Source: Alphaproteobacteria bacterium (GTDB lineage Bacteria; Pseudomonadota; Alphaproteobacteria; CBDDJK01). From it: 64,000 bases of DNA. The DNA is taken from positions 72,102-136,101 of the forward strand of contig OZ245892.1 in assembly GCA_965229605.1 (NCBI GenBank), read 5' to 3'. Position 1 is the first letter of the stretch. Every line of letters begins with the position of its first letter. Shown one piece after another: positions 6,315-60,639 of this stretch. The notes beneath the pieces were generated by a model. It did not search any database, had not been told where the DNA came from, and saw only the letters and a program-made list of their open reading frames with translations. The translations under genes and the position numbers were made by a program.

Positions 6315-7677
6315 TCATCCCCAGAGTCACCAGAAACAGGGTCAGGCCAAGGGCAAAGGCCGCCAGGGTCTTGGCACTGTCAAATTCCTGATCGCCGATT
6401 AACAGCGTAACGATCTGGACGGTGACGGTTGTGACGGCTTCAAACGGGTTGGCGGTCAGATTGGCGGCCAGCCCGGCGGCCATAACGACGATCATGGTTT
6501 CGCCGATGGCCCGACTTATGGCGAGAAGGAAGGCCCCGACAATGCCGGGCAAGGCGGCAGGCAAGACGACCAGACGGATCATTTCTGATCGTGTCGCCCC
6601 AAGGCCCAGCGCGCCTTCGCGCAAGGAGCCGGGGACAGCAGCGATCACATCATCGGACAGGGAGGAAATAAAGGGGATAATCATCACCCCCATGACCATC
6701 CCGGCAGCCAATGCGCTTTCGGAGGCAACATCAAGGCCGATTTTCTCGCCAAGCCCGCGCAGGAGGGGTGAAATAGACAAGGCGGCAAACACGCCATAGA
6801 CCACGGTTGGCACCCCGGCCAGGATTTCAAGCCCGGGTTTGACACGGGCGCGAAAGCGCGGGCTTGCATATTCGGCGAGATAGATGGCTGAAAATAACCC
6901 GATAGGCCCGGCGATCAGCATGGCGATCAGGGTAATCAGCAGGGTTCCGGCAAAAATCGGAATAGCCCCGAAGGACCCGCTGGAGGCGACCTGATCGGCG
7001 CGTAAAGAGATTTGCGGACTCCAGTTGATACCAAAGAAGAACTCGATTGGCGAGACCAGAGAGAAAAACCGCCAAGCTTCAAATGTCAGGGAGAGGATAA
7101 TACCGATGGTTGTGAGAATAGCCAGCGTTGAGGCCAGCATCAAAAAGCCGCGCACCAGCCGTTCGACGGCCTGTCTGGCGCGGAAAGCCGGGACGATTCG
7201 GCGCAGACCATAAAGAAGGCCAAGGGCGGCAACCGCAAGCGTCAAACCGATGCGATAGATATCGGCGCGGTTTTGCAGCCCTTCAAAATAGGTCTGCGCG
7301 GTTACGATGATAGTATAATAGGGCGAATCTTCTGTGCCTGTATTATTCTTGATCTGGCTGATCAAAAGGGTGCGTTCATCGGCAGACAGGTTCTGGACAG
7401 CAGGCGGAAAGCTGGCTTCGATCATGCTGTCAATGACCGGGCCTTGAAAGATCACCCAGAAGAAAAGCAGGGCCAGTGCCGGAATGCCGCACCAGAGCGC
7501 GGCAAAATAGCCATAATAGGACGGAATCGATTGCGAGGTGAATTTCGCCCCAAATTCAGAAGCAGGAGAGGATAGCTGTTGATCCTCTCCTGCTTTCTGG
7601 ATCAGATGATGCAGCCGACGCTTGCCCAGCCAATAGCCGATCACCGCAAGAACAAAAATAGCCAAAAGAAGCATCAA
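6265..7677 (-). CDS. pstC: phosphate ABC transporter permease PstC (long form)
   Basis: 470-aa polytopic membrane protein with the ABC permease signature region (SRAIGETMIV). Downstream of pstS. Confidence 0.85.
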   Translation of the reverse strand: MMLLLAIFVLAVIGYWLGKRRLHHLIQKAGEDQQLSSPASEFGAKFTSQSIPSYYGYFAALWCGIPALALLFFWVIFQGPVIDSMIEASFPPAVQNLSADERTLLISQIKNNTGTEDSPYYTIIVTAQTYFEGLQNRADIYRIGLTLAVAALGLLYGLRRIVPAFRARQAVERLVRGFLMLASTLAILTTIGIILSLTFEAWRFFSLVSPIEFFFGINWSPQISLRADQVASSGSFGAIPIFAGTLLITLIAMLIAGPIGLFSAIYLAEYASPRFRARVKPGLEILAGVPTVVYGVFAALSISPLLRGLGEKIGLDVASESALAAGMVMGVMIIPFISSLSDDVIAAVPGSLREGALGLGATRSEMIRLVVLPAALPGIVGAFLLAISRAIGETMIVVMAAGLAANLTANPFEAVTTVTVQIVTLLIGDQEFDSAKTLAAFALGLTLFLVTLGMNVAALVIQRRFKEQYD

Positions 7678-12526: not shown

Positions 12527-12872
12527 GGCAACTATCTTTATCTTTTGATTTTAAAAGTTATTGACTCAGCTTTTTTAGGCCCCCGTTTTCTATTTTTCCA
12601 TTTCATTCATTTTTGACTTGAATTTTTTGTGTGGATGGTCTATATTGTAAAGTAACTGGAAGAATCCAGGAGGTAAATACTGCAAGATAAAAGTGATTGC
12701 ACGATCTACCTGCGCAGAAACACGCGTGAATTATCCACAAATGTTAGCTGTGAAATAGATGTGAAGATTTATTTCTTGCTTGTATGAAATAATCAACCGA
12801 CTTTAGCCAGAATGGCATGATGTTTGCTTATAATTACTTGTCCTAGAGCAAATATCTGAAACATTAGGAGAT

Positions 12873-13439
12873 ATGGACATGGAAATCTCAGCAATTCAAA
12901 ACCAGTTTTATGGTTCATTTGGTGGTGCCGGTTCTGTTGGCCGCCCCTTTGGCGATGGCCCACCGGAATTCATCAACAAGATGCTCAGCGACTTCAGCGT
13001 TGATCCTGCGAGCCTGTTTGATGAACAAGGAAATTTTAGCTCAAGTGCGCTGATTGAAGCCCTTGAAGGAAATGGACAGGCCTTTCAGGACCAGGCTGCT
13101 GCGGCTGGCATTGAAGGTGGCCGCCCGCCTTTCCCGCCTCCCAATTTTGATCCAGAGCAATTTCAAGATCAGATTGCTGCCCTTCTTGAGGAGCAAGGAC
13201 TGGATTCAATCTTCAACGAAGATGGCAGCATTGACACCGAAGCCCTTGGTCAGCTTCTGCAAAGCGTCCAGGAATCGATTGGCGGCGCGTTTAGCGGTGT
13301 TGCGTTGGGAGGTCCTCCGCAAGGTGGAGGCTATGGAGGCCAGCTGGGTTCTGACACGCTGACCTCGCTTCTGGAAATGCTGTCAACTGACAATAATAGT
13401 GAAGAAGAAGACAGCGGCTTGACGCAGGTGTTGGGCTAA
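12873..13439 (+). CDS. acidic, Gly/Gln/Pro-rich hypothetical protein, probably disordered
   Basis: 188-aa ORF with a strong RBS (taggagatATGgac), preceded by a 345-bp AT-rich leader. No recognisable domain. Confidence 0.5.
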   Translation: MDMEISAIQNQFYGSFGGAGSVGRPFGDGPPEFINKMLSDFSVDPASLFDEQGNFSSSALIEALEGNGQAFQDQAAAAGIEGGRPPFPPPNFDPEQFQDQIAALLEEQGLDSIFNEDGSIDTEALGQLLQSVQESIGGAFSGVALGGPPQGGGYGGQLGSDTLTSLLEMLSTDNNSEEEDSGLTQVLG

Positions 13440-36622: not shown

Positions 36623-36690
36623 AAAAGAGAGCTAGGGCGATTCGGCTTTAGACGGCAAGTCCTTCGCCGGATAACGCATTTAACGCTGAC

Positions 36691-36750
36691 CCCATTTGAT
36701 TGTTGCCCATTTGATTGTTGCCCATTTGATTGTTGCCCATTTGATTGTTG
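36691..36750. repeat. perfect tandem array of 4 x 15 bp (CCCATTTGATTGTTG) in the parC / kinase divergent intergenic region
   Basis: Direct read, with no mismatches between copies. It ends in ttgacagg, which is -35-like. Confidence 0.9.
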
Positions 36751-36858
36751 ACAGGAAAGCACTGCCTTTGATAGCGGCTTATGGTGGCCCTTATGACCGG
36801 GGTAAAAAGTGAAAGGGCGAAAGAGCCACCTTCAGAATAAGGTCCGGGCAGGATTTAT

Positions 36859-37533
36859 ATGTCTTCATCTCGATTGCAGAATAATCAGCGGCAAAACCTG
36901 CACCTGCAAAATATAAAATTAGCTATTGAGTCGGCTATTGAAAAGACTCCGCGGGTTTTGCTGGCTATCTCTGGCCCGCCAGCAGCTGGCAAATCGACGC
37001 TGGCAGAAGAACTGGCTCTTTCCTATGGAGAAAAAGCGGCTTTCGTGCCGATGGACGGATTTCATCTGGATAATGATATTTTAACCGCCAGAGGAATGTT
37101 GGCCCGAAAAGGATCACCTGAAACCTTTGACGGGAAAGGGTTTGTCCATCTGGTTGAGCGGATTGCCGCTGGAGAATCAGTCTATGCGCCGCGCTTTGAC
37201 CGGGCAGCTGATCTGTCTCGGGCAGGTGCCATAGAGATTGACCATCACTCTTTGATTATTTTTGAAGGGAATTATCTCTTTTCTGCCCTTGCGCCGTGGG
37301 ACAGGCTGATCGCTTACTGGACGCTTTCAATCTGGCTTGATGTGTCTTTGGAGACGATTGAGAAGCGATGCATAGACCGCTGGCTGGCGCAGGGCCTCTC
37401 GCTTGCTGCTGCGCGTACGCGGGCCAGAGAGAATGATCTTGCTAATGCCCGCCTGGTGATAGAAAGCCAACAGGCTGCGACGGGCCCTTTCTTCCGTCTT
37501 TCCTCTGAAGATTCATCCCCTGTAGAAAAGTAG
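36859..37533 (+). CDS. P-loop nucleoside/nucleotide kinase family protein (uridine kinase/PRK-like)
   Basis: Walker A ISGPPAAGKST and a kinase-like DGFH motif, 224 aa. Confidence 0.65.
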   Translation: MSSSRLQNNQRQNLHLQNIKLAIESAIEKTPRVLLAISGPPAAGKSTLAEELALSYGEKAAFVPMDGFHLDNDILTARGMLARKGSPETFDGKGFVHLVERIAAGESVYAPRFDRAADLSRAGAIEIDHHSLIIFEGNYLFSALAPWDRLIAYWTLSIWLDVSLETIEKRCIDRWLAQGLSLAAARTRARENDLANARLVIESQQAATGPFFRLSSEDSSPVEK

Positions 37534-37860
37534 AAAAAACGCCTTTATTATTCTTTGGCACGGAAATTGCTTTTAATATTCCATAAATCTTATGTCTCTG
37601 GAAGAATTCAGAGATCAGGACAACGCAAGAAGCAAACCGGGGAACGGAATGGACTATCAGGCAGGTGGCTGAGCGGGTCATAAGTATCGTTATATGACCC
37701 AATCAGCTTTTTACAGACAGCTATGACGTAAAGCACTTATATATGGTTTTAAATGTTATGCATAAGCATTTAAGCCTGTATATGACGCTGAAACGACATA
37801 TGCCGGGGTGAATCCTGAGAATGGATTTATGCTGGCGTAACCAGACGAATTGAGGAAGAA

Positions 37861-39093
37861 ATGGTTGACCGCGTTAGCACGGCCGGCGTCAATTTGACGA
37901 ATTTGCTTTCGATGCAGGAAGCGAAGTCTTTGATGGATACGGTCACTAATCGTTTGACGACTGGCCGCCAGTGGCAGCGTTACCAGGACTATGGGACGGA
38001 TGCCAAGAGGATTGTTGATTATCAGAATATGATCAACGAGCACACGGGCTATATTCGTTCGATTCAGCTGGTTGAGCCGATTACGTCATCTTATGATGAG
38101 GTGTTAAGTCGTTTGGCGGATGTTGCGACGAATTTGATGCGTGCGGCTGATCCGATGACGGTTGAGCGCGAGGATTTTCCCGGAGAGACCGCTGGTTTAG
38201 CGGAATCCTGGATGGTTGAGATTGAGTCCAATTTGAATGTCGAGATTGGCGGGCGTTATATTTTTGCAGGCTCCAATTTCACGGAGGCTCCGGTCAAGGA
38301 CTTGCGCACGCTGGCTGATTATTCGGTCTATGATATAGACGATGCGCAGGGTTTGATTGATTCTGGTCTGGCACCTACGGGATTTTACACGGTGCCGGAG
38401 CTGGATGAAAACGGCAATCTGCAATATGATTCCTTTGGCGATATCATTGTTGGAGACCCGATTGAGCTTGGCACGCCGGATGCCCTGGAAAGCGCAGATA
38501 TTGTTCCGCAAAGCACCTATAAACGGCCATTGATTGATTCAAATACGGGTGATCCGGTCTATGACGCCAGTGGAAATATCGTGCTTCAGGAAACTGTCCA
38601 GTCTTACCATGAGAAATTTGCGGGCGATCAGACCGAAGACAGCCGGGCCTGGGATCAAATGAGCCTGACCGCAAGCGAGGGCAGTGCCTATTTTTACGGG
38701 ATTACGGCAGTCGAAGAAGGCTTTCAAAATCTGATTGAAGCGGCTTTACGCTTGCGCTCGGCCACGCAGGAAGACCTGGACCCCAATAATGAAAATAATA
38801 ACTGGGACCGGCAGCGCAACTTGCTACGCGAAGCCTATAATCTGGCAGATGCCGCCAGAGACCAGATCAGACAGCTGGAAGTCCGCAACGCCACCACCAT
38901 AAATTTCTTTTCTGAATCCGTGGATTTCCATGACCGCTTTATTTCCTTAAGCCAGGTCGCGCAGGACGACTTGCGCAATGCCGATCAAAATGAATCGGCT
39001 ATTCTGCTTTCGGCCCTGAATGGCCAGATGGAAGCCTCCTATAATGCGATTGCCAAACGCAATCAGCTGTCACTGACCAACTTCCTGAATTGA
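37861..39093 (+). CDS. flagellin-superfamily protein, FlgL (hook-associated protein 3)-like, orphan
   Basis: N-terminal helical segment MVDRVSTAGVNLTNLLSMQEAKSLMDTVTNRLTTGRQ, an internal GGRYIFAG motif as in FlgL, and a C-terminal helical segment NAIAKRNQLSLTNFLN resembling the FlgL/flagellin C-terminus. The upstream region is AT-rich and the RBS is a good gaggaag. No other flagellar genes lie in the window. Confidence 0.55.
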   Translation: MVDRVSTAGVNLTNLLSMQEAKSLMDTVTNRLTTGRQWQRYQDYGTDAKRIVDYQNMINEHTGYIRSIQLVEPITSSYDEVLSRLADVATNLMRAADPMTVEREDFPGETAGLAESWMVEIESNLNVEIGGRYIFAGSNFTEAPVKDLRTLADYSVYDIDDAQGLIDSGLAPTGFYTVPELDENGNLQYDSFGDIIVGDPIELGTPDALESADIVPQSTYKRPLIDSNTGDPVYDASGNIVLQETVQSYHEKFAGDQTEDSRAWDQMSLTASEGSAYFYGITAVEEGFQNLIEAALRLRSATQEDLDPNNENNNWDRQRNLLREAYNLADAARDQIRQLEVRNATTINFFSESVDFHDRFISLSQVAQDDLRNADQNESAILLSALNGQMEASYNAIAKRNQLSLTNFLN

Positions 39094-39096
39094 TTG

Positions 39097-39112
39097 ATTT
39101 TGTGCGTTTATA
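39097..39112. terminator. short GC hairpin (GTGCGT-TTAT-ACGCAC) between convergent genes; candidate bidirectional terminator
   Basis: 6-bp perfect stem with a 4-nt loop and T/A-rich flanks, exactly between the FlgL-like stop (39093) and the hicB stop (39131). Confidence 0.45.
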
Positions 39113-39130
39113 CGCACTTGCTGGGAACCT

Positions 39131-39409
39131 TCACACCTTAATCCGTAAAGCCTGTTGAATAGCCGCTTTAAGCGATATGTAAACATAAGGAGAAACAGTG
39201 GCTTGCCCGGGCTTTGGACGGCTTGGCACTGGCAGAGGCATTCCGCTTTCCAAATAGCTTTCAAGAGCGGCTGAAAGCGCATCTCGGGCCCCGGCAACCG
39301 TTTTAAAACGATCAGGATCGCCAGTGATCGCTTCTGGCACATCCGGAAACCTGATCATCCAGCTTCCGTCCTCTTCAAATTGTTCAAGCTCATAGGGGTA
39401 ATTATGCAT
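39131..39409 (-). CDS. hicB: HicB-family antitoxin (UPF0150), with no HicA partner detected
   Basis: 92 aa reading YELEQFEEDGSWMIRFPDVPEAITGDPDRFKTVAGARDALSAALESYLESGMPLP, the typical HicB N-terminal RNase-H-like fold. No HicA-like ORF is within 100 bp on either side. Confidence 0.65.
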   Translation of the reverse strand: MHNYPYELEQFEEDGSWMIRFPDVPEAITGDPDRFKTVAGARDALSAALESYLESGMPLPVPSRPKPGQATVSPYVYISLKAAIQQALRIKV

Positions 39410-39487: not shown

Positions 39488-40876
39488 TTAGGTGCCAACA
39501 ATCATCTGTTCATCGCCATAGGGAAATAGCGTCAGGTCCTCCGCCCCGTCCGGCGTAATAATGACAAGGTCCCCTTCCCGGTAAAGTCCGGCCCCTGGCT
39601 GGTCGGCAGGGACAAGAAGAGTCGGTGAAAAGAAGATCACCATCCCTTCTTCAAGCTGGCCTGGATTGGTTGCTGTCAGACGAAAACGCTTGTCGGGGGC
39701 ATTTTGATCAAAATAATAGGGCGGGTCAATCCCGCCTCCGGCACCCCCAAGCCCGAAGCCGCCACCATAATCGGGCAAGGCAAGATGCTGCATTCCGTGT
39801 TTATCCAGAAAATCATCAAGTTTTTTGACCAGAGTCTTGATCGGGAGTCCGGGCTTCAGCAGCGTCAATCCATAGGCCAGCACATCGCAGGTTGTGCGCC
39901 AGTAAGGCAGGTTTTCGGGCTGCTGCCAGGTGCAAAAAAGGGTGCGGTTGAGCGGGACTTCATAGCCGCCCTGGCGCACGATCACACTTAGCGAGATTAA
40001 ATCTCCGGCCTGAATATCCTGATTGGTGGCAGGGCCGGAGGCTGTGTCACAATCAATCCCTGAAAGCACGCGCACTTGTGATTCGCCGTGTTCAGCAAAG
40101 GGGAAATGGGCGTAAAGTTCCTCAGAAAGTTTGGCTTCTCCGGTCACGCAAAGCTGCTGACCGGTGCAGCCGGGATGAGTGGCCTGCATGATTGTGCGGG
40201 CCACGGTGCGCCCGATCAGGGCAAGTTTGCGCAGGTGGGCTTGTTCCTCGGGGCTTTTGATCAGGGTGAGTGCCGTGACTGGTGCGGTGATATTTGTCCA
40301 TAACATTTGCGGGGCAGGGGGTGTAAACAGGGCTTGCAAACGGGCAAAGTCAGCAAGATTCCATTCTTCCTCTATCAGGCCAAGGTGGACAGGAGACTCT
40401 GCGGGTTTGTCCATGCTGGCGCAAAGATGAGAAATAGCCTGATAAATGGTCTGGATCAGGGCGTGCGGTTCGCTGGTTTTGAACGCCTGTGGCTCGTTGG
40501 TTTTGAACGCCTGTGGCTCGCTGGTTTTGAACGACAGGATATTTCCGGCACTGCGCCGCCAGGGCTGATTTCCCTCGCTTTCAGGAACCAGGAGCAGGCT
40601 GCTGGTTGCGGTTGCCACCAGCGCCATGCGTGGAGAGCCACAAGCTCCCGGATAGCCCGCATAATAGGCAATCAGCGGTTTTGATAAAAAGACAACGGCA
40701 TCAAGCGGCTGGTTCTTTTTGCCTTTCGCAGGTTCGGGCGCGTTCAAGCGTGAGAACAGGGCGGATAATCTGGCAAATACCAGATCGGCTGAAAAGATTT
40801 GCCAGTCCTTTTCACCGTCTCCTGTTGCGTGTGGGCCTATTTCGCGATCAAATATACTTTCGGTCGGATCGGTCAT
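39488..40876 (-). CDS. M24-family (pita-bread fold) peptidase homologue, probably non-catalytic
   Basis: C-terminal half aligns to the Xaa-Pro peptidase/creatinase fold (GDLISLSVIV...GGYEVPLNRT, LEEGMVIFFSP, GLYREGDLVII). The canonical metal ligands appear substituted: GY-VP instead of GY-SD, and no HxxGH motif. It has an in-frame 24-bp x 3 tandem repeat at 40478..40549. Confidence 0.55.
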   Translation of the reverse strand: MTDPTESIFDREIGPHATGDGEKDWQIFSADLVFARLSALFSRLNAPEPAKGKKNQPLDAVVFLSKPLIAYYAGYPGACGSPRMALVATATSSLLLVPESEGNQPWRRSAGNILSFKTSEPQAFKTNEPQAFKTSEPHALIQTIYQAISHLCASMDKPAESPVHLGLIEEEWNLADFARLQALFTPPAPQMLWTNITAPVTALTLIKSPEEQAHLRKLALIGRTVARTIMQATHPGCTGQQLCVTGEAKLSEELYAHFPFAEHGESQVRVLSGIDCDTASGPATNQDIQAGDLISLSVIVRQGGYEVPLNRTLFCTWQQPENLPYWRTTCDVLAYGLTLLKPGLPIKTLVKKLDDFLDKHGMQHLALPDYGGGFGLGGAGGGIDPPYYFDQNAPDKRFRLTATNPGQLEEGMVIFFSPTLLVPADQPGAGLYREGDLVIITPDGAEDLTLFPYGDEQMIVGT

Positions 40877-59727: not shown

Positions 59728-60639
59728 TCAACCAAGAATCGGGGAAGTCTGATTGGCCGGAATAGCCTCCAAAATGAAACCATGCAGCTTTTCAAGGGCG
59801 CGGGCCTCAATCTGGCGAACGCGCTCCCGGCTGACCCGTAGCTCCTCACTCAGGTTCTCAAGGGTGCGGCCCGGCTCAACAAGACGACGCTGCTCCACAA
59901 CATAGCGCTCCCGGTCATTCAGCCGATCAAGGGCACCAGCCAATAAAGTATGATGCATCTCAATCTCTTGCTTCTCAGCCGCTTGCTGCTCAGGTGTGGC
60001 CTGATCATCTTCAAGATTGTCGATCCATTCGCTGACATCGCCGCCATCCTGCCCGCTGATTGGCGCGTTCAACGATACATCCCCACCAGACAACCGTCCG
60101 TTCATCGAGGCCACATCTTTCTCATCAACCTGCAAGTCAGAAGCAATGCGCTTCAGGTTTTCCGGCGACAGCTCTCCGTCCTCATAGGCCGCAAGACGGG
60201 CTTTGGCACGCCGCAAGTTGAAAAATAATTTCTTTTGGGCCGAGGTGGTTCCAATCTTGACCAGCGACCAACTGCGCAGGATAAACTCCTGAATCGAGGC
60301 GCGGATCCACCACATCGCATAGGTTGCAAGACGAAAGCCCCGTTCGGGTTCAAATTTCTTGACGGCCTGCATCATGCCGATATTGCCTTCTGCAATCAGT
60401 TCGGAAACCGGCAACCCATAGCCCCGGTAGCCCATGGCAATTTTGGCCACCAGCCGCAGGTGAGAGGTGACAAGCGCATGGGCTGCATTGGTGTCGTTAT
60501 GTTCTTGCCAGCGTTTTGCCAGCATATATTCTTCCTCGGCGGTGAGCATCGGGAACTTGCGAATATCCGCAAGATAGCGGCTTAGCCCTGCATCATCTTG
60601 TAAGGCTGGCACCGGAGGCGTTGAACGAGCAGACATCAA
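59728..60639 (-). CDS. rpoH: RNA polymerase sigma-32 factor RpoH
   Basis: Sigma-70 regions 2 and 4 plus the RpoH box (QKKLFFNLRRAKARL). Confidence 0.9.
   Translation of the reverse strand: MMSARSTPPVPALQDDAGLSRYLADIRKFPMLTAEEEYMLAKRWQEHNDTNAAHALVTSHLRLVAKIAMGYRGYGLPVSELIAEGNIGMMQAVKKFEPERGFRLATYAMWWIRASIQEFILRSWSLVKIGTTSAQKKLFFNLRRAKARLAAYEDGELSPENLKRIASDLQVDEKDVASMNGRLSGGDVSLNAPISGQDGGDVSEWIDNLEDDQATPEQQAAEKQEIEMHHTLLAGALDRLNDRERYVVEQRRLVEPGRTLENLSEELRVSRERVRQIEARALEKLHGFILEAIPANQTSPILG

Follow-up and report, generated by a model that had tools for sequence, protein, structure and literature searches.

FlgL (HAP3) is an axial protein of the flagellum, which together with FlgK forms the short junction between hook and filament. 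The terminal helices of axial proteins bear determinants of export and assembly. In flagellar clusters of alphaproteobacteria, flgL can be arranged with flaF and flbT, as occurs in Rhizobiales, and in Caulobacter FlbT and FlaF control the flagellin mRNA. The late (class III/IV) flagellar genes of Caulobacter crescentus depend on sigma-54 RNA polymerase with FlbD, FliX and IHF (PMC3096577). Here, we describe an flgL-family gene in 64,000 nucleotides of DNA from an Alphaproteobacteria bacterium (GenBank assembly GCA_965229605.1, contig OZ245892.1, positions 72,102 to 136,101 of the forward strand). This 64-kb stretch is called the window, and positions refer to it unless another locus is named.

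We consider it likely that the gene encodes a true FlgL that, in one clade, left the flagellar cluster but kept its sigma-54 promoter, and that it is strongly constrained and ordinary in all but its location. In this explanation, flgL would have been relocated to a position among housekeeping genes in a small-genome marine alphaproteobacterial lineage. The main features of the locus are as follows.

37556–37571, + strand: sigma-54 (RpoN) −24/−12 promoter element TGGCACGGAAATTGCT, exact consensus
37582–37860, + strand: putative 5′ leader of flgL, about 280 nt, probably a structured RNA, with its start inferred from the promoter
37852–37856, + strand: Shine–Dalgarno-like GAGGA, 4 nt 5′ of the flgL ATG, read from the sequence
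37861–39093, + strand: flgL-family gene (hook–filament junction protein, HAP3), 410 aa, ATG start

Protein family and purifying selection

The first-pass annotation, made by a model from the letters of the window and their open reading frames (ORFs), had assigned the 410-aa protein to the flagellin/FlgL family on account of its terminal helices and a GRYIFAG motif. Family models, predicted fold and motif all agree with this assignment. Full-length matches were obtained with the NCBIfam models PRK08913 (E = 4e-26), PRK06008 (E = 5e-15) and TIGR02550 FlgL (E = 1.9e-10, rounded 2e-10). The Pfam families Flagellin_N (residues 5–138, E = 0.004) and Flagellin_C (residues 367–409, E = 0.007) were also matched, both weakly and under their gathering scores. 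Hence, the profile search that had been proposed with flagellin_N, flagellin_C and FlgL models returned every one of them, but none at its curated or gathering cut-off. At the level of sequence, the homology to FlgL-type models is clear. The motif GGRYIFAG, at residues 130–137, is kept across the family; FlgL/HAP3 proteins likewise have a G-x-Y/F-x-F-x-G motif after the first helical block.

With a profile of the family, an exhaustive HMMER search retrieved 2185 representative proteins at E ≤ 1e-3, of which 57 also reached E ≤ 1e-30. When the 54 best relatives and the window protein were scanned, all 55 matched PRK08913 and PRK06008 and 53 matched TIGR02550, and a FliC-type flagellin model was matched by just one. 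A sequence profile search of the PDB gave one relevant chain, FlgL 5yti, with a weak E-value of 0.022. The AlphaFold2 model (mean predicted local distance difference test, pLDDT, 77; predicted template modelling score, pTM, 0.66) has helices at residues 7–125 and 286–409 and a beta-rich middle domain between them. This is the architecture of FlgL/HAP3 (TIGR02550; solved examples are 2d4x, 9go6, 7c7z and 5zj0), which also provided the best fold matches. In a Foldseek comparison with the PDB, matches 1–16 were all FlgL/HAP3 (Legionella, Salmonella junction complexes, Xanthomonas, Vibrio) at a probability of 0.98–1.0, and flagellins ranked lower. The template modelling (TM) scores of these FlgL matches were low (0.26–0.46), which we attribute to a different placement of the long helices. 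Identity to the solved FlgL structures is 12–15%, and the N- and C-terminal helices are the best conserved segments across the family. Together, the matches to FlgL models, to the PDB profile and to FlgL folds indicate that the predicted protein is a divergent FlgL, not a filament flagellin.

Strain L005, represented by a contig of 2.73 Mb, has about 95% DNA identity to the window. Its flgL differs from the window gene by 39 nucleotides and two amino acids. According to the Nei–Gojobori method, 36 differences are synonymous and two non-synonymous, with a synonymous rate (dS) of 0.143, a non-synonymous rate (dN) of 0.0021 and a dN/dS ratio of 0.015. This was the lowest ratio among six local genes, the others being parC (0.047), dihydroorotase (0.076), a HicB-like ORF (0.107), tyrA (0.158) and a kinase gene (0.248). 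Furthermore, an identical FlgL protein was encoded by ten further contigs of one metagenome, each with 17–33 silent differences; these contigs came from a look-up of the exact protein, which biases their count. The 90% cluster contains eight FlgL protein variants that differ at 1–18 positions. The gene is full length (398–410 aa) in four species and intact in at least 12 strain sequences. This pattern points to very strong purifying selection. The low dN/dS and the silent variation imply that flgL is not a decaying gene or pseudogene, and the earlier suggestion of a remnant of a lost flagellar locus is contradicted by a dN/dS below that of parC and by full-length genes in four species.

Genomic context in the window and in relatives

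A collection of 5.8 billion proteins contains no more than nine clusters of close relatives. A scan of GTDB genomes, in which the window species itself is not included and the closest FlgL is 54–55% identical, added Marivibrio halodurans, Pacificispira spongiicola, Hwanghaeella species, a Curvivirga metagenome-assembled genome (MAG) and further alphaproteobacterial MAGs. Orthologs with 33–40% identity, in Marivibrio, Pacificispira, Hwanghaeella and related MAGs, sit in a fixed flagellar arrangement. On the opposite strand there are flagellin glycosylation genes and one or two flagellins, followed by the flgL ortholog. On its 3′ side, the ortholog is followed by flaF, a formyltransferase gene, flbT (opposite strand), a small gene of unknown function, fliK, flgD, flgE, fliF and fliG. 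Like the flgL-flaF-flbT clusters of other alphaproteobacteria, these marine Rhodospirillales-like genomes thus have flgL directly 5′ of flaF, with flbT near.

The relatives with 52–57% identity form a clade with the window protein. On the complete chromosome OZ245897.1 (2.47 Mb), FlgL is 55% identical. In all four species of this clade flgL is isolated, and its neighbours differ each time.

Window: between a kinase gene and the HicB-like ORF
L004/L010: beside genes for pterin-4a dehydratase and MaoC
L006/L009: between a sugar ABC transporter and dksA
L078: after sarcosine-oxidase genes

In contrast to the alphaproteobacterial flgL-flaF-flbT clusters, neither flaF, flbT nor a flagellin gene was found around flgL in the window and the three sister species. 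An inventory with Pfam and NCBIfam showed that the 64-kb window apart from flgL consists of housekeeping genes only. These include pst/phoU, purA, a hisS-like gene, ftsK, mreC, dapD/dapE, gltX, tyrA and parC, as well as pyrB/pyrC, a TRAP transporter, hflX, lpxC, ilvD, rpoH, carD and others.

Two side observations concern these surroundings. In one sister species (L006/L007/L008), a DksA/TraR-type zinc-finger gene at 7080–7529 of that locus lies directly 3′ of the isolated flgL, and its long leader holds two copies of the 27-bp direct repeat gcatccgcataatgcgtaaagtaatat. A further pair of loci, L076/L077 (ENA ERZ26052494 and ERZ25074787), carries a flagellar cluster with flbT, a flaG-like gene, fliK, flgD, flgE, fliF, fliG, fliN, motA, a flbD-like activator gene, flhA and flhF, and without flgL, flaF or flagellin beside flbT. 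One of the two copies has a transposase about 1.2 kb from flbT, with one gene between. These loci suggest that loss or relocation of the flgL/flaF/flagellin segment happened more than once. We also considered the organism of L076/L077 (P0226) as a relative of the window organism; its guanine plus cytosine (GC) content of 0.35 argues against this, compared with 0.53 in the window and 0.42–0.46 in the sister species.

Sigma-54 promoter element and probable leader of flgL

The element TGGCACGGAAATTGCT lies 23 bp after the stop codon of the kinase gene and 305 bp before the flgL ATG. No other site on either strand of the 64-kb window matches TGGCAC-N5-TTGC exactly; the element had gone unnoticed in the first-pass annotation and is unchanged in strain L005. 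We inspected 700 bp upstream of flgL at 19 loci, which represent 17 distinct places (L005 comes from a strain of the window species, and L015 and L064 share one contig). A coding-strand −24/−12 element with correctly spaced GG and GC was present upstream of flgL at all 17 distinct loci; ten elements were exact, four had one mismatch (TGGCAT) and three had two mismatches. The exact consensus was found upstream of flgL in, among others, L001/L002/L003, L005 and L006. Since the element occurs at all 17 loci, the relocated flgL has kept the late-flagellar promoter type. Counts of 7-mers upstream of the elements at the 17 loci revealed nothing convincing as a shared motif for binding of an activator.

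With an exact −24/−12 element that is conserved across the flgL family, the locus resembles the class III/IV genes of C. crescentus. The relocated gene would have retained its own sigma-54 promoter, and RpoN-RNA polymerase, together with an enhancer-binding protein of the FlbD type, would most likely still transcribe it as one of the late flagellar genes, as in Caulobacter. The rest of the flagellar apparatus would then be present in this genome. In contrast to the Caulobacter genes, no FlbD site, IHF site, rpoN or flbD was identified for the window flgL; according to the inventory of window ORFs, neither rpoN nor flbD lies in the 64 kb. The sole gene of the sigma-70 family in the window (59728–60636, − strand) scores above the TIGR02392 cut-off as RpoH and is not a flagellar sigma factor. 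The leader of about 280 nt is another difference, as it is much longer than the leaders of cluster-borne orthologs, where the promoter lies 61–154 bp upstream.

A second sigma-54-like element, TGGCATGATGTTTGC, occurs at 12813–12827 (+ strand). It has one mismatch and is the TGGCAT...TTGCTT variant that is also found upstream of Hwanghaeella flgL. It lies in an AT-rich gap, 46 bp before an ORF (12873–13439, + strand) that encodes an acidic, Gly/Pro-rich protein of 188 aa with no match in Pfam or NCBIfam. This ORF could be another member of an flgL regulon.

The bounds of the flgL leader assume a transcription start about 12 nt downstream of the −12 element. The minimum free energy of the leader is −91.3 kcal/mol, compared with −68.2 ± 4.7 kcal/mol for shuffled sequences (z = −4.9). 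The opposite strand folds less well (−73.8 kcal/mol, z = −3.6), as would be expected if G–U pairs matter. The main hairpins of the predicted fold lie at approximately the following positions.

37596–37613, + strand: leader hairpin
37663–37712, + strand: leader hairpin
37740–37782, + strand: leader hairpin
37800–37838, + strand: leader hairpin

RNAalifold recovered the same hairpins from 12 strain sequences. The stems are polymorphic at 11 positions, and each of these keeps its pairing by a switch between G–U and Watson–Crick pairs, with one pair changed on both sides, although the structure was fitted to these same, closely related sequences and a shuffle control gave no information, since almost every change affects only one side of a pair. 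Insertions, deletions and clustered substitutions are located in the loops, and the last 56 nt before the flgL ATG are identical in all 12 sequences. In a sister species with a distance of 499 bp between promoter and start codon, the fold signal was modest (z = −2.1). A search against Rfam found no known RNA family anywhere in the 64-kb window. From these predictions, the leader of about 280 nt is likely a structured regulatory RNA, which would probably add post-transcriptional control. A coupling of translation to assembly by this leader is conceivable, by analogy with the action of FlbT and FlaF on the flagellin mRNA of Caulobacter.

The first-pass annotation had also pointed out a palindrome in this region. 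The palindrome, TTATGCATAA, is present at 37756–37765; as a feature of the DNA, it is compatible with chance. Palindromes of 10 bp occur in 31% of shuffles of the flgL upstream region, and this one is imperfect in 7 of the 11 other strain sequences. We therefore rejected TTATGCATAA as a DNA operator. Its position is the apex of the predicted 17-pair hairpin at 37740–37782.

Alternative explanations and neighbouring genes

Several results weigh against a relocated but otherwise ordinary flgL. The bit scores of the window protein remain below the curated cut-offs (40.6 vs 127 for TIGR02550, 92 vs 217 for PRK08913 and 56 vs 230 for PRK06008). Its middle domain differs from that of the nearest cluster-borne orthologs by an insertion of about 70 residues, shared by the window's clade, and no flgK stands alongside. 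The promoter lies 305 bp from the start codon, compared with the 61–154 bp of cluster-borne orthologs. When all ORFs of 100 aa or more at eight loci with flagellar clusters were used in tblastn, no flagellar gene other than flgL was matched in the 64-kb window, as the first-pass annotation had stated. With the ORFs of the same eight clusters, no other flagellar gene was found within ±10 kb at three sister loci, and for a further one, L078, the gene table has no flagellar neighbour. Moreover, a search with an FlgE profile gave no match from contigs of the window organism among the best 120 of 3774 matches, which extend down to about 47% identity, and none of the 20 FlgE clusters among the matches listed has a member on these contigs. 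The FlgE result carries little weight, and neither supports nor excludes a flagellum in this genome.

The isolation of flgL beside different neighbours in all four clade species, and the clade-specific insertion, would also fit an FlgL derivative that was kept alone or with a partial export apparatus after motility was lost, and whose enlarged middle domain serves a new role in secretion or at the surface. The small genomes (2.5–2.7 Mb) and the high-coverage, multi-strain population in one metagenome suggest a host-associated lifestyle, and the missing FlgE among the best 120 matches points in the same direction. We nevertheless regard such a new role as unlikely. The protein would be without a known exit route if the flagellar type III export gate were absent. 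The helices that bear the export and assembly determinants are its most conserved parts, the dN/dS of 0.015 applies over the whole length, and the promoter type is still that of late flagellar genes; the FlgE negative is uninformative, as it covers only 120 of the 3774 matches. A more specific version, in which the clade lost its flagellum and keeps a sigma-54-regulated FlgL derivative with enlarged surface domain and structured leader for export to, or interaction with, a host, appears slightly less likely again. The protein might also be a filament flagellin instead of a junction protein, given that the top NCBIfam model, PRK08913 (NF006489), is named 'flagellin' and that the matched Pfam families are Flagellin_N and Flagellin_C. 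This is improbable, because the relatives have separate flagellins of 303–304 aa that match Flagellin_N/C clearly and adjoin the flgL ortholog. Furthermore, 53 to 55 of the 55 scanned proteins match FlgL-type models and only one the FliC type, the 16 best fold matches are FlgL with flagellins lower, and the sole relevant PDB sequence match is FlgL. Least probable by far is that the gene is decaying after the loss of a flagellar locus. Its distance from other flagellar genes and its scores under the curated family cut-offs might suggest a remnant, but the reading frame is intact at 398–410 aa in four species, 36 synonymous differences stand against two non-synonymous ones at a dN/dS of 0.015, and the promoter and ribosome-binding region are conserved.

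A true FlgL gene, displaced and still constrained, matters mainly for annotation. In most of the source records listed, the FlgL family is named 'hypothetical protein' or has no name, because its divergence keeps the scores below the curated FlgL cut-offs, and, standing alone, the gene is easily mistaken for a relic. Its conserved sigma-54 promoter suggests that a flagellar gene can be relocated without losing its rank in the regulatory hierarchy. The leader, about 280 nt long and probably structured, is a candidate for an element that controls a junction-protein gene after transcription. If the genome lacks a flagellum, flgL would be an axial protein put to new use.

The genes on either side of flgL are considered to be outside this system.

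36859–37533, + strand: nucleoside/nucleotide kinase family gene, PRK09270 type, FrcK-like (NF006746)
39131–39409, − strand: HicB-like ORF, 92 aa, with the HicB N-terminal domain only (alignment to 6hpb)

Both are the nearest neighbours that had been named earlier, a kinase and a HicB without toxin. The kinase gene has 224 codons, matches NCBIfam NF006746 at E = 9e-61 and is separated from flgL by 327 bp. The HicB-like ORF converges with flgL, with 37 bp between the stop codons. The upstream gap of flgL had been described as AT-rich. Its GC content is indeed 0.40, but this is ordinary among the other intergenic gaps of the window (0.31–0.56), and the GC content of flgL itself (0.505) is near the window mean of 0.531. 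AT-richness as a sign of foreign DNA was therefore rejected.

Residues 4–64 of the HicB-like protein align to residues 3–62 of Escherichia coli HicB (6hpb) at E = 1.3e-5, which corresponds to the N-terminal, partial RNase H-like domain; Pfam HicB_lk_antitox was matched at E = 0.0015, under its cut-off. In contrast to HicB of the E. coli HicAB system, the protein has 92 instead of 138–148 aa, its DNA-binding half was not detected and there is no adjacent HicA. Pfam and NCBIfam matched no family of a C-terminal DNA-binding domain, and the alignment ends at residue 64. A search of the flanking gaps of 37 bp and 78 bp found no ORF of HicA size, in agreement with the earlier report of a missing toxin partner, and all other flanking ORFs of 20 aa or more either overlap a neighbouring gene or have fewer than 40 aa. 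The HicB-like ORF is intact in 12 strain sequences, shows moderate constraint (dN/dS 0.107) and adjoins flgL only in strains of the window species. We see no link between this stand-alone HicB-domain protein and flgL.

Strains also differ around the locus. At least ten strain variants occur in one metagenome, with up to 169x coverage. On a contig of 1.94 Mb (L072/L073; ENA ERZ25074195, ctg52652), the locus of kinase gene, flgL and HicB-like ORF is present twice, at about 1.49 Mb and about 1.25 Mb, in opposite orientations and with flanks that have diverged; the contig either contains a genuine duplication or is a chimera of strains that co-exist. Between parC and the kinase gene, strain L005 carries the three genes of a sugar-type ABC transporter (binding protein, permease and ATPase), and some co-occurring strains have this transporter too. 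In the window it is replaced by a gap of 236 bp (36623–36858) that contains a perfect tandem repeat of 15 bp x 4 at 36691–36750. Another tandem repeat, of 24 bp x 2.7 (40470–40533), lies within an M24 peptidase gene (39488–40876, − strand) and codes for FKTSEPQA-like repeats; the length of the peptidase varies among strains from 446 to 462 aa.

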